Positions 16,647 through 62,799 of a stretch of DNA of 64,000 nucleotides are shown piece after piece. Positions within the stretch are counted from its first letter, which is position 1, and every line of letters begins with the position of its first letter. The DNA is from Candidatus Calditenuaceae archaeon (lineage in GTDB: Archaea; Thermoproteota; Nitrososphaeria_A; Caldarchaeales; Calditenuaceae): assembly GCA_025058055.1 (NCBI GenBank), contig JANXEU010000012.1, positions 5,095 to 69,094 of the forward strand. Reading direction: 5' to 3'. The translations under genes and the position numbers were made by a program. A model generated the notes under the pieces. The model worked only from the letters and a program-made list of their open reading frames with translations. It had not been told where the DNA came from and made no database searches.

Positions 16647-16756
16647 CGACTATACCAGTCCGAGTCGAGATTTAGAATTTACCGGAGACCGATACGTAGG
16701 GTAGGGCCCTGCTCAGCGCATGAAACGTTCAAATTCTATGGCTCTGTGGTGACCGC

Positions 16757-27656: not shown

Positions 27657-29825
27657 TCAGTCCACGATCTCGTAGATGTAAACGTAGCCATACGTGTTCG
27701 GGCTGTATGGCGGGCTAGACGAGTAAACGAGCCTGTACCCCTCGATCTGTGGCGGGTTGTAGACGTGATAGGTCTGAGTACCCAAGGCGACCGGTTTATA
27801 GGGTATCATGAGGCCCAGAGTAGTCTCACTCCAGAACTTGTCGGTCGCTGTGGTGGGTGAGCCGCCGGTTCCCAGAAGGCTCGCCTCATCGATCGACGCA
27901 TACCCCAAGTTGCCTGCCTCTTGGTTTGCGATCTTGAGCATCCAATACCACTTGGACTCGTCGCCGTAAAAGAGGAGTTGCCCTCCCTGTTGACCGCCGA
28001 CGAACGGTGCAAACGTCACGAATATCAGCACATGCGTCGCCCCCAGCTCCTTGAAGATCGGCCTACTCGCGTTGGGGGGTGACAGGTATGCATAGGCGAC
28101 CTTCGCGATCCTTATGCTGTCTATCGTCGTGTTATCGATGATGCTCGTTCTGTTCCCCAGCCTCGAGATCCAGTTACCGTAGTCCCACCACGATGCGACC
28201 ACCGCGTTCTCAGGAAGGTTGTTCTTCATCCACTCGAGCGCCCTCGTCCAGTCCAAGACCGGTTGCTTGACGGGTAAGCTGCTGGTCAGTACGGTCGGTG
28301 GTACTTCTGCGTAGTCGATGCTAGAGTACTGCGAGACGCCACCGGCCCTTACGGGCACGTAGTAAAGCGTGACGACCAGAAGGATCGCTAACGGTACCGC
28401 TATCAGAGCCCTGCTCTCCAGAGCCACTCTTCTTCTGATCCTCGGAGCGGGTGAAGCTAGAGTCCTGAAGCCTCCCTCGATGATGTAGGAGAGGGTTGTG
28501 CCTGCCAGTACCGAGACTACGGGAGACGTGGGCAACGCGAGCCTCACCATCGAAGACGCGAAGTAGAAAGCGAGAATTGCGTAGACTGCCAAGAAGATGG
28601 CCTCGTTCGTTCTCCTCTTAGCAACCAGGTAGAGCGCGAAGGGCGTGAGGAGGAGCGTTGGGCCGAAGTCGAAGAAGAGAGATCCCCAAGTCGCGAGCTG
28701 GTTCTCAGCAACTGATTGGACGATCGGCAGCGTTCCCCTGAACTGCGGCAACAAGACCGAGAAGAACTTCACCCCGGGAACGTCGAGGGCTCCGAGCGCG
28801 ACGACGGTGACTCCCAAGATCGCAACCGCTAGAGCTATTCCCCTAGTGACTATCAGCGACTTGACCTCGTCCAAACGCTCCTTCGCAAGCCATACCGCGA
28901 TGAGGTACGGTATGATGAGCCACCCCGCGGCCATGCTGAACTCTGTGAGGTATCCGATGCCCAACTTCGGGACATTCACGGCGATCATCGCGTATGTCGA
29001 GAATGTTGCGAGATACGAGAGGAGGAGGTTCCTGTTGAGCCGGCCGATTAGGGTCAACAAAGCCGTGTAAAGAGGTATCATAGCGATGACCATTCTGTGT
29101 GCGCCCCACGTAGCGGTAACGTATCCGACGAAGAGCCCAGAGATCACTCCGAACAGTAGAGATCCCTTGAGAGACCTCTTCTCGTTTATGGCGACGAGAT
29201 AGAAGAGGAAAGCGGCGTGCATGAGAGGTATCGAAAGGGCCTCGTCGTCAAACCAGCCGTAATGTGTCCTCGATATATGGGCGGCGCTGACTGAGAGCAA
29301 CAACACGGACGCTAGAGCTGCACCCCTACCTACAATGTACCTCGCGAAGAAGTAGACGATCACGATCGTAACCATTCCGTAGAAAACCGGTAGGGCAGCT
29401 GCCAGAGCCACCGGTTCCACGGAGACTCCGAGCGACGAAAGCGCTAGGTAGATGAAGGCCATAGTGAAAGCGACTCCAGGGTAGAACGTGGATCCAACGT
29501 TGAGCCCCGTGGGGTACCATGAGAGCGTGTCGACCATCTCCCTGAACTCCCAGAACCCGGACCATCCCCTCTCGATGATCATGGTCGCAACTCTGTAGTG
29601 CCACCAAGGGTCGAACTCGCTCAGGATAGGGCCCCACTTCGCAGGAAGCGATCTCACCATGAAGGCCGTCGAGACCGCAATCAGCAAAACTGCTGCCTCT
29701 ATCGGTGTTAACCTTCCGCCGAGCTTCTTGTCGAGCCAACGGAAGGCTGTCGAGACACTTCCGAAGAGATGACGAGCTCCCGAGGACATCCTCCGGTACG
29801 GCTCGCTCTCACCTAATAATCTCAC
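27657..29825 (-). CDS. aglB: oligosaccharyltransferase AglB (STT3 family)
   Basis: Polytopic N-terminal half and the WWDYGNW catalytic motif; 722 aa. Confidence 0.9.
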   Translation of the reverse strand: MRLLGESEPYRRMSSGARHLFGSVSTAFRWLDKKLGGRLTPIEAAVLLIAVSTAFMVRSLPAKWGPILSEFDPWWHYRVATMIIERGWSGFWEFREMVDTLSWYPTGLNVGSTFYPGVAFTMAFIYLALSSLGVSVEPVALAAALPVFYGMVTIVIVYFFARYIVGRGAALASVLLLSVSAAHISRTHYGWFDDEALSIPLMHAAFLFYLVAINEKRSLKGSLLFGVISGLFVGYVTATWGAHRMVIAMIPLYTALLTLIGRLNRNLLLSYLATFSTYAMIAVNVPKLGIGYLTEFSMAAGWLIIPYLIAVWLAKERLDEVKSLIVTRGIALAVAILGVTVVALGALDVPGVKFFSVLLPQFRGTLPIVQSVAENQLATWGSLFFDFGPTLLLTPFALYLVAKRRTNEAIFLAVYAILAFYFASSMVRLALPTSPVVSVLAGTTLSYIIEGGFRTLASPAPRIRRRVALESRALIAVPLAILLVVTLYYVPVRAGGVSQYSSIDYAEVPPTVLTSSLPVKQPVLDWTRALEWMKNNLPENAVVASWWDYGNWISRLGNRTSIIDNTTIDSIRIAKVAYAYLSPPNASRPIFKELGATHVLIFVTFAPFVGGQQGGQLLFYGDESKWYWMLKIANQEAGNLGYASIDEASLLGTGGSPTTATDKFWSETTLGLMIPYKPVALGTQTYHVYNPPQIEGYRLVYSSSPPYSPNTYGYVYIYEIVD

Positions 29826-29855
29826 CCTTTCGAACTGACGGCTCGTCGATCGGAA

Positions 29856-30176
29856 CTACTTCGCGAGCCCGAAGGCGAAACCGATCAGGAGCCCTATGAG
29901 GAAAAGCGGATAGCTCATCAGAGGGCCCAGCGAGCTCCTCGCTAAGTCGGCTATGGGCGACAGAGCTCCAAGGAGCGACTGAACTGGTGGCAGTCCCGCG
30001 ATCGTGAGGCCTAACAAAACCACTATAGCTAGACCCACCAGAACAACCAGGAGGCCCCGAACCACCCTACCTAATCCGTATCCGATCAGAAGCCCCACTA
30101 CTAGCGTGAACCCCTGAACGACGTATTGCTGAGTATTGGCGTCGAGCATGGCCACCTCGCTGAATGTTCGTTGCAC
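29856..30176 (-). CDS. small integral membrane protein
   Basis: 106 aa with three hydrophobic, Gly/Leu-rich helices. Confidence 0.45.
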   Translation of the reverse strand: MQRTFSEVAMLDANTQQYVVQGFTLVVGLLIGYGLGRVVRGLLVVLVGLAIVVLLGLTIAGLPPVQSLLGALSPIADLARSSLGPLMSYPLFLIGLLIGFAFGLAK

Positions 30177-30207
30177 TCAGTGGAGATAAGTCTTTTCGGT
30201 TGAATAG

Positions 30208-31137
30208 TTAAAGCCACCCCCACCTGCCGAATATCAAGTAGAGCAGCGCCGCCTCTGTGTGCATCCTGTTCTCAGCCTGATCGTACATGACCGAGCTCGG
30301 GCCATCGGCGATTTCCGCATCGACTTCCTCACCTCTCTTGACCGGCATGCAGTGCATGAACTTCGCCTGAGGCTTCGCTAGCGACATCAACTCTCTCGTG
30401 ACCCTGTAACGCGGAACAAAGGCCTTCAGTCTCTGCTCGCGCTCGGCTTCAAAACCCATTGACACGAAGACGTCGGTGTACACGAAGTCTGCACCCTTGA
30501 CAGCCTCCTTCGGGTCTTCAGTGAGCGTGACCTCGGCACCTGAGGCCCTCGCGGCCTCCAACGCTCTCTTGGTCTGCTCCTCCGACACGGAAAATCCCCG
30601 CGGCGAGGCGATCGCGAAGTCGACTCCAGTAAGAGCGCAGGCCTGCATGAGGGAAGTCGCGACGTTGTTCCCGTCTCCAACGAATGCGACCTTGACTCCG
30701 TTGAAGGTCCTTTTCAGCTCGAAGACGGTCATGAGGTCTGCGAGAGCTTGGCAGGGGTGGTGTTGGTCCGAGAGTGCGTTGATTACGGGTACGCTTGAGT
30801 GTGTGGCTAGCTCCCTGAGTGTTGCGTGGCTGTAGACCCTGCAGACAAGTCCGTCGACGTACCTCGAGAGGACCTTTCCAACGTCGCTCACCGGTTCGCC
30901 TCTGGCTAGCTGGAGCTCCGCTGAGGAGATGTAATCGTAACTGCCTCCGAGCCTGTGAATGGCAGAAGTGAAAGAGACCCGTGTCCTAGTGGAAGGCTTC
31001 TCGAAGATCAGCGCTAGAGTTGTACCCCTGAGCCCGTTTGGGGGGTAACCCTCGGATTTGAACCGAACAGCCGTCCTCACGGCCTCGATGAACTCGGACC
31101 TAGACAGGTCAAGGACTTCGAGGTAGTGCCTGACCAT
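30208..31137 (-). CDS. argF: ornithine carbamoyltransferase
   Basis: STRTRVSF, HPCQALADL, DVFVSMG and HCMP motifs. Confidence 0.85.
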   Translation of the reverse strand: MVRHYLEVLDLSRSEFIEAVRTAVRFKSEGYPPNGLRGTTLALIFEKPSTRTRVSFTSAIHRLGGSYDYISSAELQLARGEPVSDVGKVLSRYVDGLVCRVYSHATLRELATHSSVPVINALSDQHHPCQALADLMTVFELKRTFNGVKVAFVGDGNNVATSLMQACALTGVDFAIASPRGFSVSEEQTKRALEAARASGAEVTLTEDPKEAVKGADFVYTDVFVSMGFEAEREQRLKAFVPRYRVTRELMSLAKPQAKFMHCMPVKRGEEVDAEIADGPSSVMYDQAENRMHTEAALLYLIFGRWGWL

Positions 31138-31247
31138 CGCTGAGAGTTCGATAACCCCGAAAATAATAGGCTATCCGGCCGCACTTCCACCTTCGTCAGG
31201 GACTGGGTCTCTTCGCTTATATCCGGTGAACTACGGTTCGAGCAGAG

Positions 31248-31436
31248 TTGTCCTGTCAACTCAAGGTTCGTGGCGGTTTAAGGCCGCTGACGGTCAGGCT
31301 CCCCGAGTCGTACATAGAGGTGCTGGAGGAGTTGGTCGAGTCGGGCGTTTACGTGAGCGTCGCTGAGGCTGTGAGGACCGCGATCAGAGACCTCATCGCT
31401 AGAGAGGGCTTTCTTATCAGGGGCGACCGGAAATGA
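31248..31436 (+). CDS. ribbon-helix-helix (CopG-like) DNA-binding protein
   Basis: LTVRLPESYIEVLEELVESGVYVSVAEAVRTAIRDLI fits a beta-strand plus two helices. TTG start is uncertain. ATGA overlap with the next ORF. Confidence 0.55.
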   Translation: MSCQLKVRGGLRPLTVRLPESYIEVLEELVESGVYVSVAEAVRTAIRDLIAREGFLIRGDRK

Positions 31437-31855
31437 GCTCCGTTTTGCTGATCGAGGAGGTGAACAGGGCGCTCTCAGAGCTGCTAGAGAGGGTGAGAGA
31501 GGAGGGCCTCATCGCCGCAGTCGCGAAGGGTTCGATACCGCCCGTTTACCCGAGAGCCACGCTGTTGTTGAGGGAGGCTAGAATAGAGAGGAGGACTATA
31601 GGAGGCAGCGCACTCTCAGTCACACAGGAGTACGAGATCGTCATCGAGAGCTTAAGGCCTGATCACGTTATTCAAGCCGAAGAGGCCCTGCGCGCGGCCG
31701 TCAGGACCATGGAGCTTCTACTCATGGAGGGGCCGAGAACCGTCGGAAACCGACCCGTCGAGGTCTTCCCCTACGAGATGAGACGGATCGAGATGCTCGA
31801 TAGCGGTAGGATGTCGACGCTGGTATCTGTCCACGTGAGGGTGCTTGTCGGGTGA
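31433..31855 (+). CDS. hypothetical protein (140 aa) coupled to the RHH gene
   Basis: Protein-like composition and a 4-nt start/stop overlap with the RHH gene. There is only a vague resemblance to phage neck/tail-completion proteins. Confidence 0.4.
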   Translation: MSSVLLIEEVNRALSELLERVREEGLIAAVAKGSIPPVYPRATLLLREARIERRTIGGSALSVTQEYEIVIESLRPDHVIQAEEALRAAVRTMELLLMEGPRTVGNRPVEVFPYEMRRIEMLDSGRMSTLVSVHVRVLVG

Positions 31856-32303
31856 ACTGCATAACCGCACCTCTTTTCCTCATGATCCTCATCAGGAGCA
31901 GAGAGAGTGTCATGACCGCGAGGCCGAGAGGCAGTAGGATTGGTGCCGCGATCTTGAAGTCGCGCCTCGATGCGACAAGCATCGCGATGCCTGCGGAGTA
32001 AGCGACCCCGACGATCGAGACGGCTCTTCTGAAGATGGATGACCTCTCTCGATGTGCCAGAACAGCGACAAGGGAGAGGGCGACAGCTCCTGCAGCTAAC
32101 AGGGCCAGAGACTCGGGCGTTCTGCTCCTCAACCGTATCTCGTACTCCTCCCAGTGTAGGGGGATGTCTCCAACGAAGGGGACGTAGAACTCCCTCACGA
32201 TGACCCTCTTGATGAGCTCAGACTCTGGAGACGAGAGTGAGATTCCACCTGCGATGAAGAAGAGGGCCGCGAACGCGAGTCCCAACATCAGAAGTACCCT
32301 CAT
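31722..32303 (-). CDS. integral membrane protein (about 4 TM)
   Basis: Hydrophobic helices through residue about 140. The basic tail lies antisense to the preceding + gene, with a 134-nt convergent overlap. Confidence 0.5.
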   Translation of the reverse strand: MRVLLMLGLAFAALFFIAGGISLSSPESELIKRVIVREFYVPFVGDIPLHWEEYEIRLRSRTPESLALLAAGAVALSLVAVLAHRERSSIFRRAVSIVGVAYSAGIAMLVASRRDFKIAAPILLPLGLAVMTLSLLLMRIMRKRGAVMQFTRQAPSRGQIPASTSYRYRASRSVSSRRGRPRRVGFRRFSAPP

Positions 32304-32596
32304 CCAACTCTCCTCCTACGGCTTCGAGTCAAGACTATTGCACCGAACAGGTCGTTCAGCAAGGTCACCGCACCACCTGTCAGAAGAAGTTCCTCCATTC
32401 GGAGATCGGTGATGTCGAGGCCCAAGTGTGGTGAGATCAGACCGACGAGGGCGCCGACCGCGACGGTCTTGAGGAACTTGCGTGGAGAGAACCCCTCAAA
32501 TCTCCTCGACTTCAGATAGCCTGCACCAGCGAAGACGGCACCGTAGAGCGCCCCTAGTAAAGCTGCGGAGAAGCTCAATTGGACCTCATGATCCAA
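32300..32596 (-). CDS. small membrane protein (98 aa)
   Basis: Gly/Ala-rich TM segments; 4-nt overlap with the downstream gene. Confidence 0.45.
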   Translation of the reverse strand: MDHEVQLSFSAALLGALYGAVFAGAGYLKSRRFEGFSPRKFLKTVAVGALVGLISPHLGLDITDLRMEELLLTGGAVTLLNDLFGAIVLTRSRRRRVG

Positions 32597-32792
32597 TCGT
32601 CGTCCACCTCTTAGTTCGAGGCGAGAGCCTCAAACAGCCGTTGCAGCAGGGGCACCTCAACGAATCGTCAACCGATCTGCAGCATCTCAGGGGGAGGGCT
32701 GCGTCGCAGACGGCGCACCAAGCATAACCCAACCGGTACCTCACCCTCCTCGAAGCGCCGTCGATCGAGGTGCAGAACGACCTGCATCTCAT
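32586..32792 (-). CDS. zinc-ribbon protein (start moved to internal ATG)
   Basis: GYAWCAVC...RCPCCNGCLRLSPR has two CxxC pairs. The internal ATG forms an ATGA overlap with the upstream gene's stop. Confidence 0.4.
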   Translation of the reverse strand: MRCRSFCTSIDGASRRVRYRLGYAWCAVCDAALPLRCCRSVDDSLRCPCCNGCLRLSPRTKRWTTIGS

Positions 32793-33025
32793 CTCGCACA
32801 GGGCCTCCGACTGGTTCTCCGCACCATCTCGCTGAGGGAAAGGCCACCTCCGAAGCTGCCGACGAGCGCGGCCTCCAGCGCCCTTCCCGCCCATAGAAGC
32901 AGGACGAACGCGATCGCAAGTACCAGAGCCAGCAACCCGAGCCAGTCGTCCATTCCGACCTTGACGGTCAGCCCTTTGCCGGTCCTCCTCACCGTAAGTC
33001 TGTCCTCTCTCCTCATCTCAATCAC
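32789..33025 (-). CDS. single-pass membrane protein (78 aa)
   Basis: Central TM helix WLGLLALVLAIAFVLLLWA; overlaps both neighbouring genes. Confidence 0.4.
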   Translation of the reverse strand: MIEMRREDRLTVRRTGKGLTVKVGMDDWLGLLALVLAIAFVLLLWAGRALEAALVGSFGGGLSLSEMVRRTSRRPCAR

Positions 33026-33344
33026 CGGTCAGGAGTACTCCGCCTCTGGACCTGAGGTCCTCTGTTAAGACCTCCAGCTCCTCCCTCACAGCCCTCAGGT
33101 AAGAGGTCACCTCGTCCCTTTTCGGAGACCTCCACGCGACGAACAGCAAAGCGGCGATTGTGCTGGAGAGCTTCCTTATTCTAGGCGGAGGTTCCACCAA
33201 GGGCGCATCAAGTCCGGACGCGTTTAGGGCAGCGTCGATCAACGCGTCAGCCTCTTCGACGAAGGCCCTGAGAACCTCGTCGTACGTCGAGTCGTCCACG
33301 GGAAGACCGACCTTCACCTTCACCTCTTGCACCGAGCCGTACAT
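33018..33344 (-). CDS. hypothetical protein, weakly reminiscent of phage gp6-type head-tail connector/DNA-packaging proteins
   Basis: 108 aa. The N-terminal VQEVKVKVGLPVDDSTYDEVLRAFVEEADALIDAAL resembles the connector-family N-terminal helix pattern. Unverified. Confidence 0.35.
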   Translation of the reverse strand: MYGSVQEVKVKVGLPVDDSTYDEVLRAFVEEADALIDAALNASGLDAPLVEPPPRIRKLSSTIAALLFVAWRSPKRDEVTSYLRAVREELEVLTEDLRSRGGVLLTGD

Positions 33345-33468
33345 CGACTAGGTAGGAGCAGAAGTCAAGCATTACCCCTCGCTATATTGACGTTTTAGTT
33401 TTAAAATTCACTGAAATCAAGTTTCAAAAAAGCGATACTGAGTAAACTTAGTCTAAATCGATACAGGC
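33345..33468. promoter_or_regulatory. AT-rich divergent promoter region
   Basis: This is the only strongly AT-rich stretch in the cluster (CTATATTGAC, TTTTAGTTTTAAAATTC, TTTCAAAAAAGC). It lies between two divergent, tightly coupled operons. Confidence 0.45.
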
Positions 33469-33813
33469 GTGGTGAGTAGAAGGATCAGGGAGGCGTTGCG
33501 TAGTGTGAGAGAAGGAGAGCTGATAGTTGTGAAGTGGTGGGACGCCTGTACGTGGAGGGACGTGCCCAACTCGGTCAGAAACCCGAGGAAGGTCGACAGT
33601 CCAATCTACTCCATCGGTGCCTTCGGAGGCGTCGTCAAGGGAGAGAGGGTTGAGTACCTCAGGTTGATCGTTGAAAGGAAGCCCGACACCAGCGACATCA
33701 CCTACATACCACTACAGCTGATCGAAGGGGTCGAGAGGGAGAGGTTCAGCGCCCCCAAGAAGCGCATAAGGAACTATGTGGACAACCTGAGGTTCTACGG
33801 TGAACGCGTGTGA
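33469..33813 (+). CDS. hypothetical protein (114 aa), first gene of the terminase-like operon
   Basis: Protein-like composition and a GTGA overlap with the next gene. Confidence 0.4.
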   Translation: MVSRRIREALRSVREGELIVVKWWDACTWRDVPNSVRNPRKVDSPIYSIGAFGGVVKGERVEYLRLIVERKPDTSDITYIPLQLIEGVERERFSAPKKRIRNYVDNLRFYGERV

Positions 33814-34124
33814 CCTCAGGGCTTCACAAGGAGTTCGTGTCCGTGGAGAGGAGGCTGAGGAGGCTTGCGAGATCGATCGAGAGGAGGTCTTCCGAGAAGG
33901 GCGTTCCGAGCGACTGGAGGCAGCTTGAGGAGGAGGTATGGTCGTTGGTGCAGGAATCTTACTCGCTCTCCCAAGCGGCAAAGTCCGAGGGCGATCTGAA
34001 GACCTCTAAGGCGTGTGTCGGTGTGGCTCTCAGAGGACTCGAGCTTCTCAGCAAGTTGAGGCGTGACCGAGAACTCGAGGAGATCAGGGCCCTAGTCGAC
34101 CGAATTGAGGAGGAGGAGAAATGA
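33810..34124 (+). CDS. coiled-coil protein (104 aa) in the small-terminase position
   Basis: Charged helical sequence; ATGA overlap with the terminase-like gene. Confidence 0.4.
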   Translation: MTSGLHKEFVSVERRLRRLARSIERRSSEKGVPSDWRQLEEEVWSLVQESYSLSQAAKSEGDLKTSKACVGVALRGLELLSKLRRDRELEEIRALVDRIEEEEK

Positions 34125-35434
34125 GCCGCTCGGTGCCGCATAACCTCAGGAGGAGGATCGAGACCCTCAGGAGACTGCGTCGATCTAGAGGCGTCTCGGT
34201 CCCAGAGGATCCCGTGGACTTCGCGGTCAACTTCCTCGCTTGGAGGCCCTTCCCCTATCAGATGGACTTGCTAACCGACAGCAGCACGAGGATATGCGTC
34301 TGCGCCGCGAGGCAGGTGGGTAAGTCCACGACCATTGCGGTTAAGGCACTTCACACCGCGCTGTCCAAGAGAGGGTCGAGGGTGCTCGTCGTTGCACCGA
34401 CTCTACGTCAGAGCTTGCTCTTCCTCGAGAAGGTCCATGAGCTCCTCAGGAGGTCGGAGGTTGCCTTCGGCTCGCTGGCCAAGACAGACAGGACGTCCGT
34501 GAAGTTCCTCAACGGCAGCAAGATCATCGCACTTCCCTCGGGCCGTTTCGGGCACACAATCAGAGGTTTCACGGCAGACGCGGTGATCGTGGACGAGGCG
34601 GCGTTCGTTCCGGAGGAGGTGATCACGGAGGCGCTGATGCCGCAAGTCGCAACGACCGGAGGTAGCATCGTCTTGATAGGAACTCCATGGGACAGAGGGC
34701 ACGTCTTCTACAGGTGCTTCACCAGTAGCGGCTGGAGCGTTAAGAGATGGCCGGCTAGCGTCTGTCCACTAATTCCGAGCAGCTTCGTCGAGGAGCAGCG
34801 CAGGCTCGTCGGCGAGGAGGCATTCAGGAGGGAGTACCTTGCGGAGTTCGTGGAGGACTCGAATTCGTTCTTCTCGGCTGAGCTGATCAGGAAGTGCGTG
34901 GCCGACTATGACCCCTCACCGGGGAGAGGTTCGGAGCTGGTCGCGGGGTACGATTGGGGCGGAAGGTCCGACCCGAACGCTCTGGTAGTCGTCGAGTGCT
35001 GTGGCGGTTTTTTGAAGTTGGTTCACGCTGAGACCTGGATGAGTGACAGCTACGCGTACTCGGTCTCTAGAGTTGCATCGCTCCAGAGGGAGATGGGGTT
35101 CAAGGTCGTCTTGGAGGAGATAGGCGCAGGGGTCCTGGTGAGAGAGCAGCTCGAGGCTTCAGGAGTCGACGTGATAGGTGTCGGCCCCTCTGAGGTCGAG
35201 AGGACGATGCTCCTCCTGAGGGTGCTAATGGAATCAGGAAAGGTGAAGATCTACCTCGACCACAGGCTCGTCGACTCGCTCAGGTCCGTTAGGTACGAGA
35301 AGACTAGAAACGGCAGGGTCAGGTTCTTCCACGACCCTGGTACCCGCGACGACCTTGCAAGGGCCCTAGCACTTGCTGCCTGGGGATCTACTCTGTCGCC
35401 TTTGAGCGTCTCTGTTGCTCTCTTGGAACCATGA
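34121..35434 (+). CDS. terminase large subunit-like ATPase/nuclease
   Basis: PYQ adenine motif, Walker A AARQVGKST, Walker B AVIVDEAAF and coupling motif IGTP. The C-terminal RNase H-like nuclease acidic residues are AGYDWGG and TRDDLARALALAAW. Confidence 0.75.
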   Translation: MSRSVPHNLRRRIETLRRLRRSRGVSVPEDPVDFAVNFLAWRPFPYQMDLLTDSSTRICVCAARQVGKSTTIAVKALHTALSKRGSRVLVVAPTLRQSLLFLEKVHELLRRSEVAFGSLAKTDRTSVKFLNGSKIIALPSGRFGHTIRGFTADAVIVDEAAFVPEEVITEALMPQVATTGGSIVLIGTPWDRGHVFYRCFTSSGWSVKRWPASVCPLIPSSFVEEQRRLVGEEAFRREYLAEFVEDSNSFFSAELIRKCVADYDPSPGRGSELVAGYDWGGRSDPNALVVVECCGGFLKLVHAETWMSDSYAYSVSRVASLQREMGFKVVLEEIGAGVLVREQLEASGVDVIGVGPSEVERTMLLLRVLMESGKVKIYLDHRLVDSLRSVRYEKTRNGRVRFFHDPGTRDDLARALALAAWGSTLSPLSVSVALLEP

Positions 35435-36918
35435 GGATCGAGCTATCGGACCCGGTAATTCCGAAGGGTTTCGTCCATTTACCGAAGAGGGCCTTCAGAC
35501 TCTCCCGCTCCTTCGAGACCTCCGCTCCGAGGAGAAGGAGAGTGCTGGACGTTCACGACGCCTTCGGGCTCGGTTTGGGAACCAAGAAGTTCGTCGTTTA
35601 CGATAAGCTGGTGGTCGACATCGACCCGGGAGACGTCGTTTTTATCACCGGAGAGAGCGGCGGAGGGAAGTCGCTCCTGCTGAAGGACCTCGCAGCGAGG
35701 CTGGCCTCCTTCAGGGAGTTCAGGCCCGTCCTCAAACTGAACGACATCAAGGTCCCGAGCAACGAGCTGGTAATAGAGGGCGTTGGCTCGGACACCAGAA
35801 GAGCGATCGAATCGCTGTCGACCGTGGGGCTCGGGGAGGCCTTCGTCTTCCTTAGGAGGTTCCGCGAGTTGAGCGACGGTCAGAAGTTCAGGTATCTGCT
35901 CGCGAAGGCCCTCGACCGCAGCCCAAAGACGCTCGTCGTGGATGAGTTCTGTTCGAACCTTGACCGCACCACCGCGAAGGTCCTTGCCTTCCTGGTTCAG
36001 AGACGCGCGAGAGCTCAGAGGGTAACGCTGCTGGTAGCGACATCTCACGACGACCTCATCGAAGACCTGGGGCCTGACGTGCTGGTGAAGAAGGCCTTCG
36101 GATCTAAGGCCGATGTTACCTATGACCTGCCGCGTCCGCGGAGTTGCTCGCTGATGAGCCACATGGTTATAACAGAGGGAACATGGCAGGATTACAAGCA
36201 GCTGGCCGAGTTCCATTACAGAGGTGGAAGTCCGGGTTTCCGGAGAGCAGTTTACAGCGCTAGGCTGGGCAACGAGCTCGCTGGAGTCATAGTTTACGTC
36301 GCACCGCACCGGGAGCTGGCTGCTAGGAACGCAGCACTTCCGATCGTTAAGGAGATGAGGTCCAAGCTCGGGGGATCGGCATTCCTGAAGTGGATGAACG
36401 ATCACTTCGTGAGGATCTCGAGGGTCGTCGTCCATCCGAAGTTCAGGGGCATAGGACTGGGAGTCGAGTTGGTGAGGAGAACGATGCCCCTCGTGGGGAA
36501 GCCGTATGTGGAGACTTTAGCCGTTATGGCGCGATACAACCCCTTCTTCGAGAGGGCTGGGATGAGGCGCGTTCAGTTCGACCGCGGCCTTCCCGCAGCT
36601 GTCGAAGACGCGTTGGAGCTGCTCGACGGATTAGGTGCCGACGACTTCGTCTTGCGGGACGAGGGGCTTTTCAAGAGGTGGTACCGGTCCATCGAGCCCA
36701 GCGCGCGCCGCAAGGTTTTGAAGCTCTTAAAGGCCGCGGTCGGAGGCTACTGGGCTACTCAGTCATCTAAAGATCCCTCCGAAATGGCCAGGGCCCTTGT
36801 CAAGTTGCTGGCGAGGCCTCAATACCTGATCTGGAAGAACCCCGACTCGAGATACGGATCGCTACCGGAACCGATCACTTGCCCTCTTCCTTCCGCTCCT
36901 CAGGAGCAAGCCTCCTGA
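35431..36918 (+). CDS. ABC-type ATPase fused to GNAT acetyltransferase domain
   Basis: Walker A GESGGGKS, signature LSDGQ, Walker B LVVDEF, D-loop SNLD and H-loop TSHD. These are followed by GNAT motif A RVVVHPKFRGIGLGVELV and a tail of about 120 aa. Confidence 0.8.
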   Translation: MRIELSDPVIPKGFVHLPKRAFRLSRSFETSAPRRRRVLDVHDAFGLGLGTKKFVVYDKLVVDIDPGDVVFITGESGGGKSLLLKDLAARLASFREFRPVLKLNDIKVPSNELVIEGVGSDTRRAIESLSTVGLGEAFVFLRRFRELSDGQKFRYLLAKALDRSPKTLVVDEFCSNLDRTTAKVLAFLVQRRARAQRVTLLVATSHDDLIEDLGPDVLVKKAFGSKADVTYDLPRPRSCSLMSHMVITEGTWQDYKQLAEFHYRGGSPGFRRAVYSARLGNELAGVIVYVAPHRELAARNAALPIVKEMRSKLGGSAFLKWMNDHFVRISRVVVHPKFRGIGLGVELVRRTMPLVGKPYVETLAVMARYNPFFERAGMRRVQFDRGLPAAVEDALELLDGLGADDFVLRDEGLFKRWYRSIEPSARRKVLKLLKAAVGGYWATQSSKDPSEMARALVKLLARPQYLIWKNPDSRYGSLPEPITCPLPSAPQEQAS

Positions 36919-37102
36919 TGTCGGTCCAGCACTCGCCGAGCGCGGCTCCGCCCATCTTCTCCCACACCCAGGCGATGAAGACGTTCCTGAGCACCTCGGC
37001 GTCGCTGCTCCCCATCTTGCCCTTCAGGTAGGACAGGCACCGGTACTGTTCGTCGGTGAGGGTCACGAGAACGTGCTTTGGCAACTCATCACCCCATATC
37101 AT
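36875..37102 (-). CDS. ribbon-helix-helix-like small protein
   Basis: VLVTLTDEQYRCLSYLKGKMGSSDAEVLRNVFIAWV fits a strand plus two helices. Its 3' end overlaps the ABC-GNAT gene by 44 nt. Confidence 0.5.
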   Translation of the reverse strand: MIWGDELPKHVLVTLTDEQYRCLSYLKGKMGSSDAEVLRNVFIAWVWEKMGGAALGECWTDIRRLAPEERKEEGK

Positions 37103-37153
37103 CTGGCTAATACTGCAATAATTAGGGTTTCGTCAGAGGTCGTTTGTGAGCCT

Positions 37154-37327
37154 TCATCGTCGGCCGTCTTTGAGCGACGAAAGCCTCTCCCTCAGCCTCC
37201 TCAGCTCAACCAATCGCGGATCCGTGCTCCTGAAGTCTGCCAAACCCCTCAAGACCTGTTCGTAAACCTCCGAGGTCGGCTCAATAGTCCTTCGACGCCG
37301 CAGGACCGCGAGGATCCTCCCCAGCAT
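37154..37327 (-). CDS. possible 57-aa ORF (below the ORF-track cutoff)
   Basis: Manual translation gives MLGRILAVLRRRRTIEPTSEVYEQVLRGLADFRSTDPRLVELRRLRERLSSLKDGRR. It lies upstream of the RHH gene and is co-oriented with it. The listed + strand ORF here looks Pro-rich and antisense-like. Confidence 0.25.
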   Translation of the reverse strand: MLGRILAVLRRRRTIEPTSEVYEQVLRGLADFRSTDPRLVELRRLRERLSSLKDGRR

Positions 37328-37441
37328 CCCCGTATCTCTTCCGAGGTCTCGGTATTATCGCTTCTCCGAACTTGTTAGGTACCAAATACCTTATGTGAGG
37401 ATACGCTTATTTTCATCGCGCTTCACTCGGTATGGAAGATC

Positions 37442-38317
37442 TTGTGCAGGATGCTTGCATTGAGGTTCGTCGAAGGAGCGAGACGGCTGGCTGACGAACT
37501 CATAGACTCGACGGTGGAGGCTTCAGTGAACGACCCCTACCTCGAGAGGTTATCGGGTAACCAAAGGCACTGTCACGGCTACGGCTTCGCGCTGGCGAGG
37601 AGGATCAGAGGGTCTTGGGAGGTCATCAAGGGTAGGTTCGATGCGGCTCCGTGGAAGAGCGGCGAGGAGGCCTGCGATGCTAACCTGAAGGCGCTGGGCG
37701 AGGCCGCAGAGGAACTTAAGGGCCTCCTGAAGAGAGGTGACGAATACGCACTCATCCTCCACAGCAGGCGTACTGGTTCGGAGCCCCGGGGCGTAAACTC
37801 CGCCCATCCGTTCTCGGGCGAGGTGGTGCTCAACGGTGTCAACGGCCCCGAGCTCTTCGAGGCCTATCTCTCCCACAACGGTGGTGTGAAGAAGGCTGAG
37901 CTCGCTGCTCTCTTGGGGCTCGCCGATCCGGACCTGTACACGGACTCGAACGTCCTGCTCAAATTCCTGCTGAGCAGAGTTGACCGACGGGCGACCCGGG
38001 AGCTCCGAGAGTCGCTTAGGGCTGCGATAAGGGAGGCTGTTCCATACGGCCTCAGCTCCTTGGACATGCTCGTCATGTTCGTGGGTCAGTCAACAGCCCC
38101 TATGCTCTTCGCAGCGGGTTACGTGAAGAGCTCCGATGAGAACAGATGGGCCTACTACGAGCCCGTGTTGGTGAGGGGGAATGGGCTTTCGGGTTACGTC
38201 TCGAGCACTGTCAGGGACGTAGCCCTGGGCAGACGCGTCGCGGTCGAGTTCCTCTCCGGGCGGAACAGGTTCCTTTCGGAGCTGTCGCCAAACGGCATCG
38301 AGTCGCTGGAGGTATGA
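37442..38317 (+). CDS. class II (Ntn-type) glutamine amidotransferase-like protein
   Basis: N-terminal MCRMLA, where Cys2 would be the nucleophile after Met removal; 291 aa. Confidence 0.55.
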   Translation: MCRMLALRFVEGARRLADELIDSTVEASVNDPYLERLSGNQRHCHGYGFALARRIRGSWEVIKGRFDAAPWKSGEEACDANLKALGEAAEELKGLLKRGDEYALILHSRRTGSEPRGVNSAHPFSGEVVLNGVNGPELFEAYLSHNGGVKKAELAALLGLADPDLYTDSNVLLKFLLSRVDRRATRELRESLRAAIREAVPYGLSSLDMLVMFVGQSTAPMLFAAGYVKSSDENRWAYYEPVLVRGNGLSGYVSSTVRDVALGRRVAVEFLSGRNRFLSELSPNGIESLEV

Positions 38318-38318
38318 G

Positions 38319-39311
38319 GTGACTCCCTTGGAGATCATGAGCAACGGAAGAGGAGCGATATTGACCCTCGATGATAGCAGATCTATTGCTCTGGACTCGG
38401 ACGATCCGAACGCGCTCGCGTGCGTCTCTCATGCCCACATGGACCACCTCTCCGGATTCGGGTCGAGGTCCGCGATTACGACAGAGGAAACCAAGCTGAT
38501 TCTAAGCGCGAGAGGTTTCAGGTTACGGAATCACATGAGGCTGGGCTTCGGAGAGTCCACAGACTTAGGCAGCGGACTCAAGGTCTCAGTCCACCCGTCA
38601 GGTCACATGTTGGGTTCGGCGGTCTTTGAGGTCGAGGTCGACGGCATGAAGGTGCTTTACACTGGCGACCTCAACACCGAGCCCTCGATACTTCACGACC
38701 CAGCTTGGTCAACGGATGCAGAAGTCCTCGTCATCGAGTCAACCTACGGATCGCCAGTCTATCGCTTCAAGGAGAGGGATCTGGTCTATTCGGAGATCGT
38801 CAGGTGGATCCGGGAGGTCCTCAGAGACGGCAGGATTCCAGCGTTCAACGTCTACGCAGCCGGCAAGGCCCAAGAGATCATCGCCCTCGTCAACCAGTCG
38901 ATCAAGGTGCCTGTGTTGGTAAGCAGGAGGGTAGGCAGCGTCGCATCCGTTTACAAGAGGACATACCCTTGGCTTGATTACGTCGTAGAGGGTTCAAGGA
39001 GTGCATCGGAGGTATTGAGGGACGGCTGCCTCGTTTACGTGAGCGACCGCGTCTCTCAGTTTGAGGGTCTCAGGCTGTCTTGGGCCGTGGCGACCGGCTG
39101 GGCCCTCACCAGAAGTTTTGGGGAGTTCGATGCAGCGTTCCCGCTCAGCAGCCACGCCGACTTCGCCGGTCTCATCGATTACGTTAATTCGGTCTCACCT
39201 AGAGTAGTCGTGACGATGTACGGCCACTCCTCCGTGTTCGCGTCGCACCTCAGGAGACTTGGTCGAAGGGCCTTCTCCCTAGACGAGATACGTAACGTTA
39301 GGATGCTTTGA
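38319..39311 (+). CDS. metallo-beta-lactamase / beta-CASP family nuclease
   Basis: SHAHMDHLSG, PSGHMLGSA, YTGDLN, VIESTYG, LSSHAD and TMYGHS motifs appear in the expected order. Confidence 0.75.
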   Translation: MTPLEIMSNGRGAILTLDDSRSIALDSDDPNALACVSHAHMDHLSGFGSRSAITTEETKLILSARGFRLRNHMRLGFGESTDLGSGLKVSVHPSGHMLGSAVFEVEVDGMKVLYTGDLNTEPSILHDPAWSTDAEVLVIESTYGSPVYRFKERDLVYSEIVRWIREVLRDGRIPAFNVYAAGKAQEIIALVNQSIKVPVLVSRRVGSVASVYKRTYPWLDYVVEGSRSASEVLRDGCLVYVSDRVSQFEGLRLSWAVATGWALTRSFGEFDAAFPLSSHADFAGLIDYVNSVSPRVVVTMYGHSSVFASHLRRLGRRAFSLDEIRNVRML

Positions 39312-39354
39312 TAAAAATATGTGAGGTTGGCTGGGCTTTGTCGCGTGCTTCAGG

Positions 39355-40251
39355 CTAGAGTCTGATTCCGAGCTTCTTCGCTATCTGCTCGAAGTCGTCC
39401 TTGTAAAGGCCCGGAGCGAACTCCTCCGGTACGTCCGGCAACACGGGTATCGGTCCGCCTTCGGGTGGCCCCTGTACGACCTCGAGCTCGCCGTCGCCTG
39501 TTGGTGCCATGCCCTTCCAGATGCGCTCGATGTCTTTGTAGTCGTTTTGGCTGAACCTGTAGAGCTTCCTGTGGACTCCCTTAGCCATGTAGTTCTTGGC
39601 CTCGGGGAACTTGTCGTTCTCGATCTTCGGGATCGGGAGCATTCGCCACACCTCGACCCCGGTTACGGCCTCCAGAGCCTTTCCGTAGGCGAGCGCGTGC
39701 ACTCCTCCCCTCACCAGCAGGTAACCTATCATCTCCCTTGCAACCGGGTTGTCAGTCATCTCGTATACCCGGATCTTCGCGAGCCTTGCGCCGACCTCGA
39801 GGAAGAAGTTGTGCAAGAGGTCGAGCGTCAGGTTTCCGCTCGAGAAGATGTAACCTCCGTGCCAGAAGGCGCCCATGCTGTCCCCAGCGAATGAGGTTAT
39901 CGCGGTGTTGATGAAGTGGAACGTATTGCGTGCAGACTTCCCTCTCTCGAGGGGCTTCTGATCTGGTGGAACGTTCTTCGTCGATCCCTGAAGCAAAAGG
40001 TTGATCGTCGCAGAGACCAGCTCTATGTGTCCCAGCTCCTCAGTCGCGATGTTCGCAATCAGGTCTCTGAAGGGTTTCACCGCCGGGTTGTTGTGGGCCC
40101 TGAAGTTGAAGGACTGGTAGGTGTAGTTCATCAGCGTCGACATCTCACCGAACCTACCTCCCAGCAGCTCCTGCACTGCAGCCGCGGCGTCCGGATCAGG
40201 TTCCTTCGGTGGTGGTAGCGCGATCTGTAACCTGTCTATTCGGAGCCACAT
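39355..40251 (-). CDS. manganese catalase
   Basis: LLGGRFGEMSTLMNYTYQSF and EELGHIELV motifs of the ferritin-like Mn catalases. Confidence 0.9.
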   Translation of the reverse strand: MWLRIDRLQIALPPPKEPDPDAAAAVQELLGGRFGEMSTLMNYTYQSFNFRAHNNPAVKPFRDLIANIATEELGHIELVSATINLLLQGSTKNVPPDQKPLERGKSARNTFHFINTAITSFAGDSMGAFWHGGYIFSSGNLTLDLLHNFFLEVGARLAKIRVYEMTDNPVAREMIGYLLVRGGVHALAYGKALEAVTGVEVWRMLPIPKIENDKFPEAKNYMAKGVHRKLYRFSQNDYKDIERIWKGMAPTGDGELEVVQGPPEGGPIPVLPDVPEEFAPGLYKDDFEQIAKKLGIRL

Positions 40252-40324
40252 AGCGACACACCACGAAACTAGCGTTAGATAGATTTATTTTTTCAAATGA
40301 AACTAATTGTTAAATGAAAAAATA
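40252..40324 (-). promoter_or_regulatory. AT-rich catalase promoter with repeated AAATGAAA elements (candidate Fur/PerR operator)
   Basis: AAATGAAA occurs at 40295-40302 and 40312-40319. There is an inverted TTTCA-AA-TGAAA and an A/T-rich TATA-like tract about 30-40 nt upstream of the catalase ATG. Confidence 0.35.
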
Positions 40325-40762
40325 TCATCCGTTCCTGCGAGGAGAGCATTTTGGGCAGATGACCAACACATCGCACCCCACTACGTTATACCCCTTCTTG
40401 TTGAGGAAGCTGAGCAGTCCTTTGATGTGAGAGTCATCTAGGTCTGAGATGAGACCGCATGCGACGCAGTGCAGGTTCACGTGAAGCCCCTGAGAGAGTT
40501 CATACCTCGAGTGACCTCTCATCGACGAGATCTCTCTCGTAAGTCCCGTCTTCGTGAAGAGCTGAAGGGCCCTATAGACCGTAGCTATACCTATGGTCGG
40601 GGCCCTCGATGCTATGTACTCGTATATCTCGGATGCCTTTGGGTGATCGAGCTTCATCAACGCTTCAGCGACTAGGAGCCTTTGGTGCGTGACCTTTACC
40701 CTGTGCGACTTCAGTAGGGCCAGCAGTTCTTCCGTCGTCGGGCCTGTGCGTTGTCTGGGCAT
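40325..40762 (-). CDS. Fur-family (PerR-like) transcriptional regulator
   Basis: Winged-helix N-terminus (HQRLLVAEAL...ASEIYEYI) and metal-site residues HCVACG ... CPKC. Confidence 0.85.
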   Translation of the reverse strand: MPRQRTGPTTEELLALLKSHRVKVTHQRLLVAEALMKLDHPKASEIYEYIASRAPTIGIATVYRALQLFTKTGLTREISSMRGHSRYELSQGLHVNLHCVACGLISDLDDSHIKGLLSFLNKKGYNVVGCDVLVICPKCSPRRNG

Positions 40763-40841
40763 CCCGCTCGTTGTAACTCGTGGTCGAGATTAATGCGTTG
40801 TGTCCAAAATTCGGCCTTCAACTAGCAGTGACGCGAGCGGT

Positions 40842-41903
40842 TCACACCGGTCTCAATGGAGGGGCGTTCAGGCCCTCATACTCGCTGAACCCCAGCACCA
40901 GGTTCATGCACTGAACGGCCTGACCTGCTGCGCCCTTCATCAAGTTGTCAATCGCTGCGAAGAGAGCTGCTCGACCGATTCTCTGCTCAACTGCCATTCC
41001 AACGTCTGCGAAGTTCGAGCCTATCAGGTATTTCGGATCTGGATACCTACCTCCCCTGACGATCCTCACGAAAGGCTCCTGTCCGTACCTCTTCGCGTAG
41101 GCCCTCCAGACCGCCAGCTCGTCTGTGGAGGTGTCGGACAACCAGACGTGAGAGGTCGCGAGAGCTCCTCTGACCGCACCGACTGCGTGTGGCACCAGCG
41201 CAACCCTGACGCTTTTTCCCGATAAAGCGGTGAGCTCCTGCTCTACTTCGGCAACGTGTCTGTGACCTGCGGCCTCGTACGGTCGCATTACGTTCGCCCT
41301 CTCAGGGTGATGAGTGCCTATGGACGGCTTCATGCCTGCCTCGCTGCTTCCCACCTTGACGTCAACGACGATGTGATCCAAGTCGATAAGCCTGTGTTCG
41401 ACTGCGGGGATAAGAGAGAGCAACGCAGCGGTTGAGTTGCAACCAGGACAGGCGACCAACTGGGCGTTCCTAATGGCGTCTCGATGAAGTTCTGGAAGAC
41501 CATAGGTTGCCTTCGAGAGCAGGTCTGGCGCGTCGTGAGAGAAGTCGTACCAGTGCTCGTAGAGCTTGGGGTCCTTTAACCTGAAGTCGGGGCTCAAATC
41601 GATCACCTTCAACCCGTGCTCAATCAGTTTGGGCGCTAGGCCTTTCGCGACACCGCTGGGGGTGCTCGTGAATACGACGTCGCACTTCCCTATCAGCTGA
41701 TCGACTGAGAGCTGTGAGAACTTCAGGTTTCCAAGGAATCCTTTGAGATTGAAGTGAACGTTAGAGATGGGCTGGCCCGCATACTCACGCGACGTCGCGA
41801 CCGTAATTTCGGCCCTCGGATGCGTCGCAAGTAACCTGAGGAGCTCCCCGCCTGTGTACCCTGATGCACCGACGATCCCGACCCTCACGTCCTTCGTCCC
41901 CAA
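40842..41903 (-). CDS. argC: N-acetyl-gamma-glutamyl-phosphate / LysW-aminoadipyl-phosphate reductase
   Basis: VGIVGASGYTGGELLRLL and the catalytic Cys context ACPGCNSTA; 353 aa. Confidence 0.85.
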   Translation of the reverse strand: MGTKDVRVGIVGASGYTGGELLRLLATHPRAEITVATSREYAGQPISNVHFNLKGFLGNLKFSQLSVDQLIGKCDVVFTSTPSGVAKGLAPKLIEHGLKVIDLSPDFRLKDPKLYEHWYDFSHDAPDLLSKATYGLPELHRDAIRNAQLVACPGCNSTAALLSLIPAVEHRLIDLDHIVVDVKVGSSEAGMKPSIGTHHPERANVMRPYEAAGHRHVAEVEQELTALSGKSVRVALVPHAVGAVRGALATSHVWLSDTSTDELAVWRAYAKRYGQEPFVRIVRGGRYPDPKYLIGSNFADVGMAVEQRIGRAALFAAIDNLMKGAAGQAVQCMNLVLGFSEYEGLNAPPLRPV

Positions 41904-48878: not shown

Positions 48879-48952
48879 GCCTGGGTAGTATAGCCAGGTT
48901 AGTATACCGGCCTGTCGAGCCGGTGACCCGGGTTCAAATCCCGGCCCAGGCG
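48879..48952 (+). tRNA. tRNA-Asp(GUC)
   Basis: Full cloverleaf: GCCTGGG/CCCAGGC, anticodon stem CCGGC/GCCGG, loop CTGTCGA, T arm CCGGG-TTCAAAT-CCCGG. TATAAG lies about 31-36 nt upstream. Confidence 0.9.
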
Positions 48953-56150: not shown

Positions 56151-56272
56151 GGAGCACCAGCACGCGACTTTCACGGGTGGTCTCCCACCCCACTACTCGC
56201 CGCGCGGACAGGGCTTAGCTTCCGGGTTCGGAACGAGTCCGGGCGTTCCCCCTGTCCTATGACCGGTGCTCC
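56151..56272 (-). rRNA. rrf: 5S ribosomal RNA (unlinked to 16S/23S)
   Basis: The reverse complement contains CCGAACCCGGAAGCTAAGCCC. The terminal helix GGAGCACCGG/CTGGTGCTCC is 10 bp and the gene is 122 nt. A TTAATA box lies 24-29 nt upstream. Confidence 0.85.
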
Positions 56273-61823: not shown

Positions 61824-61873
61824 GACGTATCCCAGAGATTCTATGTGTTTTTGGTGTGGATCAATGGTGTTGT

Positions 61874-62564: not shown

Positions 62565-62669
62565 CGAAAATTTTCATCCGGCAACCAGCGGTCGTGGAAT
62601 TGCCTTTAACGGATCTCTCTAAACCGGATAGTTGCAACGTCATCAAGTTCGAGAGTTGCTTCTGAAGGA

Positions 62670-62698: not shown

Positions 62699-62799
62699 GT
62701 TTTTCTGGTCGTTTGATGTGGGTTTTGTTCAATTGAGTCATCTTTGTTTGCTATGAACCAGTTAATGATTATATACGATTGGGGATGAGTGATTGAAAT

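Follow-up and report, generated by a model that had tools for sequence, protein, structure and literature searches.

A domesticated tailed-provirus remnant with an intact large terminase and an ABC-ATPase/GNAT enzyme is maintained beside argF in Calditenuaceae

The DNA analyzed here is a stretch of 64,000 nucleotides (the window; position 1 is its first letter) from contig JANXEU010000012.1, part of a metagenome-assembled genome (MAG) of a Candidatus Calditenuaceae archaeon (Caldarchaeales, formerly 'Aigarchaeota'; assembly GCA_025058055.1). A first-pass annotation, made from the letters and a list of open reading frames (ORFs), had drawn attention to four plus-strand genes at 33469-36918, the third coding for a large terminase (TerL) and the fourth for a fusion of an ABC-type ATPase with a GNAT acetyltransferase domain (ABC/GNAT). 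We found that these four genes are only part of a unit of 11 genes and 5.7 kb, referred to below as the cassette, which occupies positions 31248-36918. Its features and its right-hand neighbor are as follows.

31248-31436, plus strand: RHH62, a CopG-type ribbon-helix-helix (RHH) regulator and the first gene of the cassette (Pfam RHH_1, 1.2e-7)
31433-31855, plus strand: p140, 140 aa, a protein of the neck/tail-joining block of proviruses (jackhmmer link to family c105)
31722-32303, minus strand: m193, which closes the minus-strand operon and codes for a multi-pass membrane protein (hydrophobic segments visible in the translation)
32300-32596, minus strand: m98, a small membrane protein of the c60 family (c60 hidden Markov model, 1.5e-8)
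32586-32792, minus strand: a zinc-ribbon protein of 68 aa with the pattern CxxC...CPCC, matching the provirus c59 family
32789-33016, minus strand: x78, about 75 aa with one hydrophobic helix; its start codon has options
33018-33344, minus strand: a108, which opens the minus-strand operon and codes for a head-tail adaptor of the gp6 / Mu gp36 type
33345-33468: AT-rich spacer of 124 bp between the divergent operons, presumed to hold both promoters
33469-33813, plus strand: g114, 114 aa, the first gene of the TerL operon
33810-34124, plus strand: g104, 104 aa, apparently all-helical (by eye), in the usual small-terminase position
34121-35434, plus strand: TerL, 437 aa, large terminase
35431-36918, plus strand: the ABC-ATPase/GNAT fusion, 495 aa, with a conserved helical C-terminal domain
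36875-37102, minus strand: r75, a small host gene outside the cassette, at its right border

The coordinates of the four plus-strand ORFs, and the start-stop overlaps that join them (GTGA at 33810, ATGA at 34121 and ATGA at 35431), proved to be as first described. The minus-strand operon consists of five overlapping ORFs (a108, x78, the zinc ribbon, m98 and m193), with the start codon of the zinc-ribbon gene set by alignment with the 68-aa product of a syntenic locus (L001), and the stop codon of RHH62 overlaps the start of p140 (ATGA). In all seven cassette loci compared, the spacer between the divergent operons measures 123-126 nt and contains conserved blocks. RHH62 is kept in all cassette loci, and RHH62-like genes also adjoin TerL and ABC/GNAT genes in locus L156. 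The GC content of the cassette, 0.584 against 0.568 for the whole window, bears out the earlier impression of a host-like base composition. The genes for p140 (plus strand) and m193 (minus strand) converge and overlap by 134 nt (31722-31855), and both frames are kept in all cassette loci.

The right border is set by r75. The 3' end of this gene overlaps that of the ABC/GNAT gene by 44 nt in convergent orientation, and its product is 84-99% identical among cassette carriers. Homologues that are 60-84% identical lie among host or housekeeping genes in loci L179 and L180, with no TerL or ABC/GNAT nearby, and no relative of r75 was found in viral contigs (IMG/VR). Since r75 occurs where there is no cassette, we take it to be a host gene, and the cassette comprises the 11 genes of 31248-36918. 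For the same reason, and because hhalign gave 0.1%, we rejected the idea that r75 regulates the cassette and is akin to provirus RHH family c47. To the eye r75 looks ribbon-helix-helix-like, and no library confirms this.

TerL matched the Pfam family Terminase_6N (1.9e-14) and PHROG terminase families (down to 5e-44). In profile comparisons with the PDB, its ATPase domain matched 4zni (6e-13) and its nuclease domain 5m1f (2.5e-9), both from thermophilic phages. All the motifs that had been read from the translation were present: PYQ at residue 45, AARQVGKST (Walker A) at 62, VIVDEAAF (Walker B) at 155, the coupling motif IGTP at 186, and GYDWGG at 276 and RDDLARAL at 409 in the nuclease. Alignment of 26 homologues, on which degenerate catalytic residues might have appeared, gave the opposite result. 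Residues R64, G67 and K68 of Walker A, R148, D158 and E159 of Walker B, and D278 of the nuclease do not vary. Only D or E occurs at position 332, 25 of the 26 sequences have D410 and 25 have D411, and T188 and P189 are conserved. As judged by these matches, TerL is a bona fide large terminase, predicted to combine an N-terminal packaging ATPase of the ASCE class, complete with Walker A, Walker B, arginine finger and coupling motif, with a C-terminal RNase H-type nuclease of three acidic catalytic positions, all of them intact. To our knowledge, terminases are regarded as strictly viral and as useless without a procapsid. The ATPase domain of TerL also scored above the Pfam cut-off for the helicase domain of NAT10/TmcA (PF05127; 30 against 22.7 bits), and TerL matched the NCBIfam TmcA family (1.2e-9), while the best structural match of the adjoining GNAT domain is TmcA itself. 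This resemblance may reflect shared P-loop ancestry or coincidence.

In the ABC/GNAT protein, the motifs of both domains are intact, in agreement with the first reading of the gene as a fusion. The ATPase half is a complete ABC nucleotide-binding domain, D-loop included, with Walker A (GESGGGKS) at residue 74, the signature motif LSDGQ at 147, Walker B at 168, DEF at 171 and the H-loop histidine H206, and the GNAT half has the acyl-CoA motif R-x-x-G-x-G as RGIGLG, beginning at R339. These motifs are invariant across 26 sequences. Pfam recognized ABC_tran (5.8e-10) and, weakly, GNAT families, and some sources label the family 'ABC-type ATPase with predicted acetyltransferase domain' or 'MK0520'. 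An AlphaFold2 (AF2) model of residues 230-495 had a mean predicted local distance difference test (pLDDT) score of 89.8. When this model was compared with the PDB using Foldseek, 27 structures matched at E<=1e-3 and those listed were GNAT-type acyltransferases, headed by E. coli TmcA (2zpa; E 1.4e-5, 308 columns), with Mom of phage Mu in fifth place.

TmcA and NAT10 join an ATPase to a GNAT domain and make N4-acetylcytidine (E. coli TmcA is an ATP-dependent tRNA cytidine acetyltransferase), and Mu Mom is a GNAT-fold DNA adenine acyltransferase. The cassette protein has in common with TmcA/NAT10 the logic of an ATPase-coupled GNAT; its ATPase, however, is ABC-type and not helicase-like, the TM-scores are low (0.35-0.38), and a tRNA-binding domain is missing. 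A passage of PMC7824862, citing Iyer et al. 2013 (Aravind group), presents a protein with GNAT and ABC domains as predicted to perform an uncharacterized acyl modification of DNA bases. The literature that we searched on the ABC/GNAT family and on phage SSU5, which carries a relative, yielded no functional account. A role on nucleic acids is supported by the company the family keeps, as ParB is fused to ABC/GNAT in relatives of about 630 aa and is encoded next to it in Nitrosocaldus loci and in phages nickie and SSU5; in the cassette, no ParB was found among the proteins screened against Pfam and NCBIfam. We infer that ABC/GNAT is an ATP-dependent acyltransferase that in viruses would act at the packaging step, most likely by acylating DNA bases, in line with that prediction and with the analogy to TmcA and Mom.

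The first gene of the TerL operon, g114, belongs to a family of 1179 proteins, none with a Pfam domain. Clustering of neighboring ORFs showed TerL to be preceded by a member of this family in 31 genome and 4 viral loci. The AF2 model of g114 (pLDDT 75) consists of a helix, a small five-stranded beta-barrel and a basic C-terminal helix, and the protein is a candidate DNA-recognition or small-terminase-like factor. The second gene, g104, is confined to 12 cassette loci (jackhmmer). The genes found at the same position in Bathyarchaeia (c16) and Nitrosocaldus (c163) were rejected as its equivalents, with hhalign probabilities of at most 1.3%.

We then asked in what company these genes occur elsewhere. 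A profile search for ABC/GNAT in a collection with one genome per species returned more than 570 matching stretches, and the 80 best, from Caldarchaeales, Nitrosocaldus, Nitrososphaerales and many Bathyarchaeia, were analyzed as loci. TerL was encoded within 10 kb in 55 of the 80, mostly adjacent to, directly upstream of and co-directional with ABC/GNAT, so that the linkage suspected from the single locus is conserved. Virion genes, counted as portal, protease-HK97 capsid fusion, Phage_tube_2 tail tube, HK97 gp10-like neck, tape measure or hub, lay within 10 kb in 40 of the 74 non-cassette loci and in none of the cassette loci. By gene order and profile matches, then, the trio of g114, TerL and ABC/GNAT recurs in tailed viruses and proviruses of Caldarchaeales, Nitrososphaeria and Bathyarchaeia, and in a large group of tailed viruses it is normal for TerL to lie beside ABC/GNAT. 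The first-pass annotation had seen ABC/GNAT in the place of a portal gene as the mark of a non-viral partnership; this argument does not hold. The breadth of the trio among viruses of Thermoproteota is new, being unmentioned in the literature on Bathyarchaeia and archaeal proviruses that we searched. In tailed viruses of Thermoproteota, g114 and ABC/GNAT regularly accompany TerL, and the enzyme also stands next to the terminase in cultured phages, which points to a packaging-linked step that has gone unstudied, plausibly DNA acylation.

The association extends to cultured bacteriophages, 58 records of which matched the ABC/GNAT module. In Pseudomonas phage nickie the order is ParB, a hypothetical protein, a DNA methyltransferase, ABC, a hypothetical protein, GNAT, a hypothetical protein, a DNA-binding protein in the position of the small terminase (TerS), TerL and portal, with the major capsid protein (MCP) further on; in Salmonella phage SSU5 it is ParB, ParB, ABC, a hypothetical protein and GNAT. 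The ABC and GNAT proteins of this module are homologous to those of the cassette at 32-40% identity, carry the same motifs and occupy the same place beside TerS/TerL. In the phages, however, the gene is split into two ORFs and accompanied by ParB and often a methyltransferase, whereas the cassette has no ParB, places ABC/GNAT downstream of TerL and has no virion module after it.

Two further groups of ABC/GNAT loci came to light. Loci L117, L119, L121, L124, L127 and L132, from Nitrosocaldus, Nitrososphaerales and Nitrosopumilales MAGs, contain a second type of small island, at about 8-14 kb in locus coordinates, with four small genes followed by ABC/GNAT, a ParB-like gene, a gene for a helical protein of about 140 aa and a TerL of 285 aa that has the ATPase domain only and a Walker A of K-A-T-G-I-G-I-T, without GK[ST]. 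No capsid genes lie within 10 kb of these islands except in L132, which has portal and MCP matches; L124 and L132 have a separate ORF for a nuclease domain, and locus L118 has ABC/GNAT but neither ParB nor TerL. In the other group (L138, L140, L157, L160 and L163 from Bathyarchaeia, and also P0205, P0218, P0235 and P0237), an N-terminal ParB is fused to ABC/GNAT in proteins of about 630-660 aa, and there is no TerL within 10 kb.

Outside the TerL operon, too, the cassette has relatives inside complete proviruses. In jackhmmer searches, p140, a108, the zinc ribbon and m98 all had homologues within complete Caldarchaeales proviruses (L100, L103, L106, L109 and L114). The p140 relatives of family c105 adjoin gp10-like neck and tail-tube genes in all five of these, although p140 itself had no Pfam or PDB profile match. 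The zinc ribbon was linked to c59 in L100, L103, L106 and L109. Relatives of m98 were found in 27 loci including proviruses, and its family, c60, adjoins portal and ABC/GNAT genes in complete proviruses. Homologues of a108 were present in 9 provirus loci; of 15 members of the a108 family, 9 matched Pfam Phage_Mu_Gp36 (best 8.8e-10) and 4 matched Phage_connect_1 (1.5e-6). Both x78, which is kept in all of them, and m193 are confined to 12 cassette loci.

The cassette had been described as free of virion genes. This stands for the portal, capsid, tail tube and tape measure, as hidden Markov models (HMMs) of ten structural families built from related proviruses (among them portal, protease-MCP, MCP, tail tube, gp10-like neck, tape measure and tail hub) gave no match in the 64-kb window, and we therefore rejected the possibility that a complete provirus lies elsewhere in it. 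It does not stand for the connector genes, with the a108 adaptor encoded about 125 bp upstream of the TerL operon and with p140 a relative of neck-block proteins. The same structural families were absent from the 6 cassette genome loci (+/-10 kb) and from 5 complete copies on metagenome contigs. As also noted in the first pass, there is no integrase nearby: no integrase Pfam family was recorded within +/-10 kb in the syntenic locus L001. No integrase or replication domain was found when the cassette proteins other than x78 and the zinc ribbon were compared with Pfam, PHROGs and NCBIfam; no search was aimed specifically at att repeats. In IMG/VR we found no free virus with a cassette-type TerL, the nearest TerL on a viral contig being 37% identical.

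Caudoviricetes proviruses such as CalSub-Pro, Nvie-Pro1, NCAV2-Pro1 and the tailed viruses and proviruses of Bathyarchaeia have the TerL lineage and the trio in common with the cassette, and they contain homologues of its adaptor, neck-block gene, zinc ribbon and small membrane protein. Several of them also have neither integrase nor att sites (PMC6563490). Unlike the cassette, which has none of these genes, measures 5.7 kb and keeps its synteny throughout a host family, the proviruses encode portal, HK97 MCP, protease, tail tube and tape measure.

The whole cassette lies beside argF, in identical order, in all carriers (L001-L006, L091-L096 and L173-L177), of which L091-L096 represent six species-level genomes and five further copies are metagenome contigs. 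The other flank differs between subclades. The TerLs of L091-L096 are 60-90% identical, and all 11 ORFs are intact in every carrier, down to about 60% TerL identity. In the tree, the cassette TerLs form one clade, sister to TerLs from proviruses of Caldarchaeales and Nitrososphaerales, and the ABC/GNAT protein has the same nearest neighbors. That the two proteins share this pattern indicates a single ancestral acquisition.

We estimated the ratio of nonsynonymous to synonymous substitution rates (dN/dS) by the Nei-Gojobori method for four independent genome pairs. The ratio was 0.06-0.37 overall for the cassette, with x102 at 0.52 in one pair and m193 (0.12-0.48), listed at up to 0.48, as the exceptions; flanking host housekeeping genes gave 0.05-0.21. 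Values were 0.06-0.08 for g114, 0.11-0.17 for TerL, 0.14-0.27 for g104, 0.12-0.30 for p140 and 0.08-0.36 for x78. In three of the four pairs, synonymous divergence (dS) was about the same in the cassette as in the host flanks, and for L092 versus L093 all genes were at about 0.3-0.4.

Because homologous loci routinely carry portal and capsid genes, the locus is a provirus fragment. The cassette is the remnant of a tailed archaeal provirus with an HK97-type capsid, domesticated and neither decaying nor a free virus. In an ancestor of a Calditenuaceae lineage it was fixed at a site between argF and a small host gene; it has since been inherited vertically, with purifying selection on every gene that remains, and its portal, capsid, protease and tail genes have been lost. 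What has been kept is the packaging-proximal operon (g114, g104, TerL and ABC/GNAT), the divergent operon (the head-tail adaptor, a small membrane protein, the zinc ribbon and two further membrane proteins), and the RHH regulator with the neck-block protein. The first-pass annotation had opposed a domesticated nuclease to a decaying provirus. Its first half is upheld, in that the cassette is maintained (synteny with argF, one TerL clade, low dN/dS, intact catalysis); the second is not, in that the cassette does derive from a provirus, portal and capsid genes being found in the homologous loci where their presence had been said to count against domestication. Since it is intact and conserved beside argF across the family, the host probably uses it. 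A capsid-less terminase cassette that is vertically inherited and under purifying selection across a family is new, as is its constant association with the ABC/GNAT enzyme and g114, and it provides a concrete and tractable case of what cells do with domesticated packaging machinery.

How the host might use the cassette can be sketched from the predicted activities of its proteins. TerL would be a competent ATP-driven DNA translocase and endonuclease, and g114, perhaps together with g104, would recognize DNA or a partner. In viruses, the trio would act at genome packaging, with TerL cutting and translocating, g114 recognizing, and ABC/GNAT acylating the DNA or a component of the packaging machinery. 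In the host, an incoming virus could find its concatemers and procapsids engaged by the resident terminase and adaptor, with its packaging sabotaged or diverted as a result; ABC/GNAT would mark DNA, and regulation would fall to the RHH protein and to the conserved divergent promoter. The host use that we judged likeliest is to interfere with related infecting viruses or to exploit them, because terminase and adaptor make sense only where there are procapsids, and because Calditenuaceae carry full proviruses of the trio type (L108). Even so, a role in conflict with related tailed viruses infecting these archaea is put forward tentatively, as a possibility that we hold at well below even chances. 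Taken as a whole, a domesticated provirus fragment with the protein roles and host use proposed here is the explanation that we prefer and consider fairly probable.

Several observations weigh against this explanation or parts of it. The carrier MAGs are incomplete, and the search for capsid genes covers the window and the +/-10-kb flanks only. Between the window and its closest relative (L091), dS is uneven over 27657-41903, at 0.9-1.5 for AglB, OTC and ArgC and 0.23-0.43 for TerL, ABC/GNAT, p291 and a metallo-beta-lactamase-fold gene, which indicates some recombination and an inheritance that is not strictly clonal. The distribution of these values suggests that the right half of the cassette and the two genes downstream of it lie in a tract that has recombined recently. 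In the Foldseek comparison, ordinary protein and small-molecule GNATs scored nearly as well as TmcA and Mom, so the structural match is a hint and does not establish a DNA substrate. Similarly, g114 had no significant structural match in the PDB or BFVD: its best matches were ribosomal bL19-like barrels (E 0.016, not significant) and uncharacterized phage proteins (E 4e-3 or weaker). With respect to function, a known defence system was rejected, as PADLOC-DB 2.0 returned only generic ABC matches for ABC/GNAT (mad3, mad8, AriA and AbiLi), a weak Cas6 match for x78 (E 0.003) and nothing for the other eight proteins tested. The defence role floated in the first pass therefore finds no PADLOC family support beyond such generic matches.

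Of the alternatives, the one that survives best is a split particle system under host control (a gene transfer agent, GTA), of which the cassette would be the packaging half, or else a helper-dependent satellite, with the capsids encoded at other loci or by the helper. The retained adaptor and neck-block proteins would then fit those capsids and tails, and keeping them is sensible only with virions around, just as a terminase has no known job without a procapsid. Immobilized Caudovirales-derived elements, without att sites or integrase, are already known in Thaumarchaeota and have been proposed as possibly GTA-like (PMC6563490, PMC5797428). Moreover, genes of tape-measure-like, tail-fibre and Mu gpP-like type are reported on another contig of one cassette carrier, Ca. 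Calditenuis fumarioli (PMC10547907, Table S6). Yet the same source lists no capsid, portal or terminase for the near-complete C. fumarioli MAG, portal and capsid genes were found neither in the window nor within +/-10 kb of any carrier, and neither a cassette-type TerL nor an r75-linked copy was found in the viral contig collections. The lack of an integrase or replication gene, together with a position fixed through divergences with dS >1, argues against a mobile satellite in particular. We regard this alternative as unlikely.

Phage satellites such as phage-inducible chromosomal islands (PICI), including capsid-forming PICI, are small chromosomal elements with their own terminase and connector genes that exploit or block a helper; they have integrase, excision and replication genes and are mobile, whereas the cassette has none of these genes and is positionally fixed. 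Domesticated defective prophages, reportedly treated by Bobay, Touchon and Rocha in 2014, and GTAs resemble the cassette in their vertical inheritance at a fixed locus, in purifying selection on the surviving genes and in their lost autonomy. GTAs, however, keep a complete head-tail module, where the cassette keeps only packaging and connector genes, and the described examples are mostly bacterial.

Next comes the idea of the first-pass annotation, a cellular system that works without capsids, in which TerL serves as a translocating nuclease and ABC/GNAT marks DNA, with a role in DNA processing or akin to restriction-modification. The operon is tightly coupled, both enzymes are intact, the ABC/GNAT family is predicted in a passage of PMC7824862 to modify DNA, and capsid-less variants recur in the Nitrosocaldus-type loci, with the order ABC/GNAT, ParB and TerL ATPase. 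There is no known precedent, however, for a terminase working without a portal. Such a system would also leave the retained adaptor and neck-block gene unexplained, and the cassette has no PADLOC family match and no methyltransferase-type or specificity partner. We consider it distinctly improbable. For some form of cell-exapted terminase, be it a capsid-less anti-virus device in which TerL, g114 and ABC/GNAT would hijack or destroy the procapsids or the replicating DNA of related viruses, a DNA-marking and cutting system or the packaging locus of a multi-locus Caldarchaeales GTA, our expectation is higher but still guarded, short of what we would call likely. If true, an exapted terminase or an archaeal GTA would be the first for the phylum, and a role would be given to an uncharacterized ABC/GNAT family that is found in more than 570 genome stretches and in cultured phages.

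Finally, the cassette might be what is left of an old provirus, inert and functionless though not yet decayed. In favour of this, the genes essential for virions have been lost, no cellular role is known for a terminase, and the orphan TerS-TerL of Nitrosopumilus koreensis (NitKor-E1) has been read as a likely relic (PMC6563490). Yet all 11 ORFs remain intact down to a TerL identity of about 60%, with dN/dS comparable to that of flanking housekeeping genes, intact catalytic residues and conserved start-stop overlaps and promoter-spacer length, and this reading is strongly disfavoured and in our estimate very improbable. NitKor-E1 (Krupovic et al. 2019), a cryptic integrated element of a member of Nitrososphaerota, resembles the cassette in having a terminase of enigmatic function and no other virion genes. 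That element was reported from a single genome, however, and includes genes for an integrase, a restriction endonuclease and a toxin-antitoxin pair (PMC6563490); the cassette lacks an integrase, counts ABC/GNAT and an adaptor among its genes, and is conserved by purifying selection in many species.

Elsewhere in the window, a host gene at 15552-16649 (minus strand) is homologous to cluster c106 (HMM E 1.4e-83), members of which directly flank the ABC/GNAT-RHH end of the complete proviruses in L100, L103, L104 and L106. In those genomes the c106 gene may mark a preferred neighborhood for integration. At the other end of the window, a tRNA-Leu had been suspected at 62-64 kb, and neither ARAGORN nor Rfam (gathering threshold) finds one there. 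In the region 61799-63579, an ORF at 61799 begins with MGSNPTP, which resembles a translated tRNA T-arm, and is followed by an AbrB/PIN-like pair and a DUF91/NucS-like ORF of 259 aa; this end of the window is low in GC (0.43-0.49). RNA genes in the window include, in its right half, a 5S rRNA at 56152-56270 (minus strand) and a tRNA-Asp at 48879-48952 (plus strand), and also a tRNA-Ser at 3977-4068 (minus strand).

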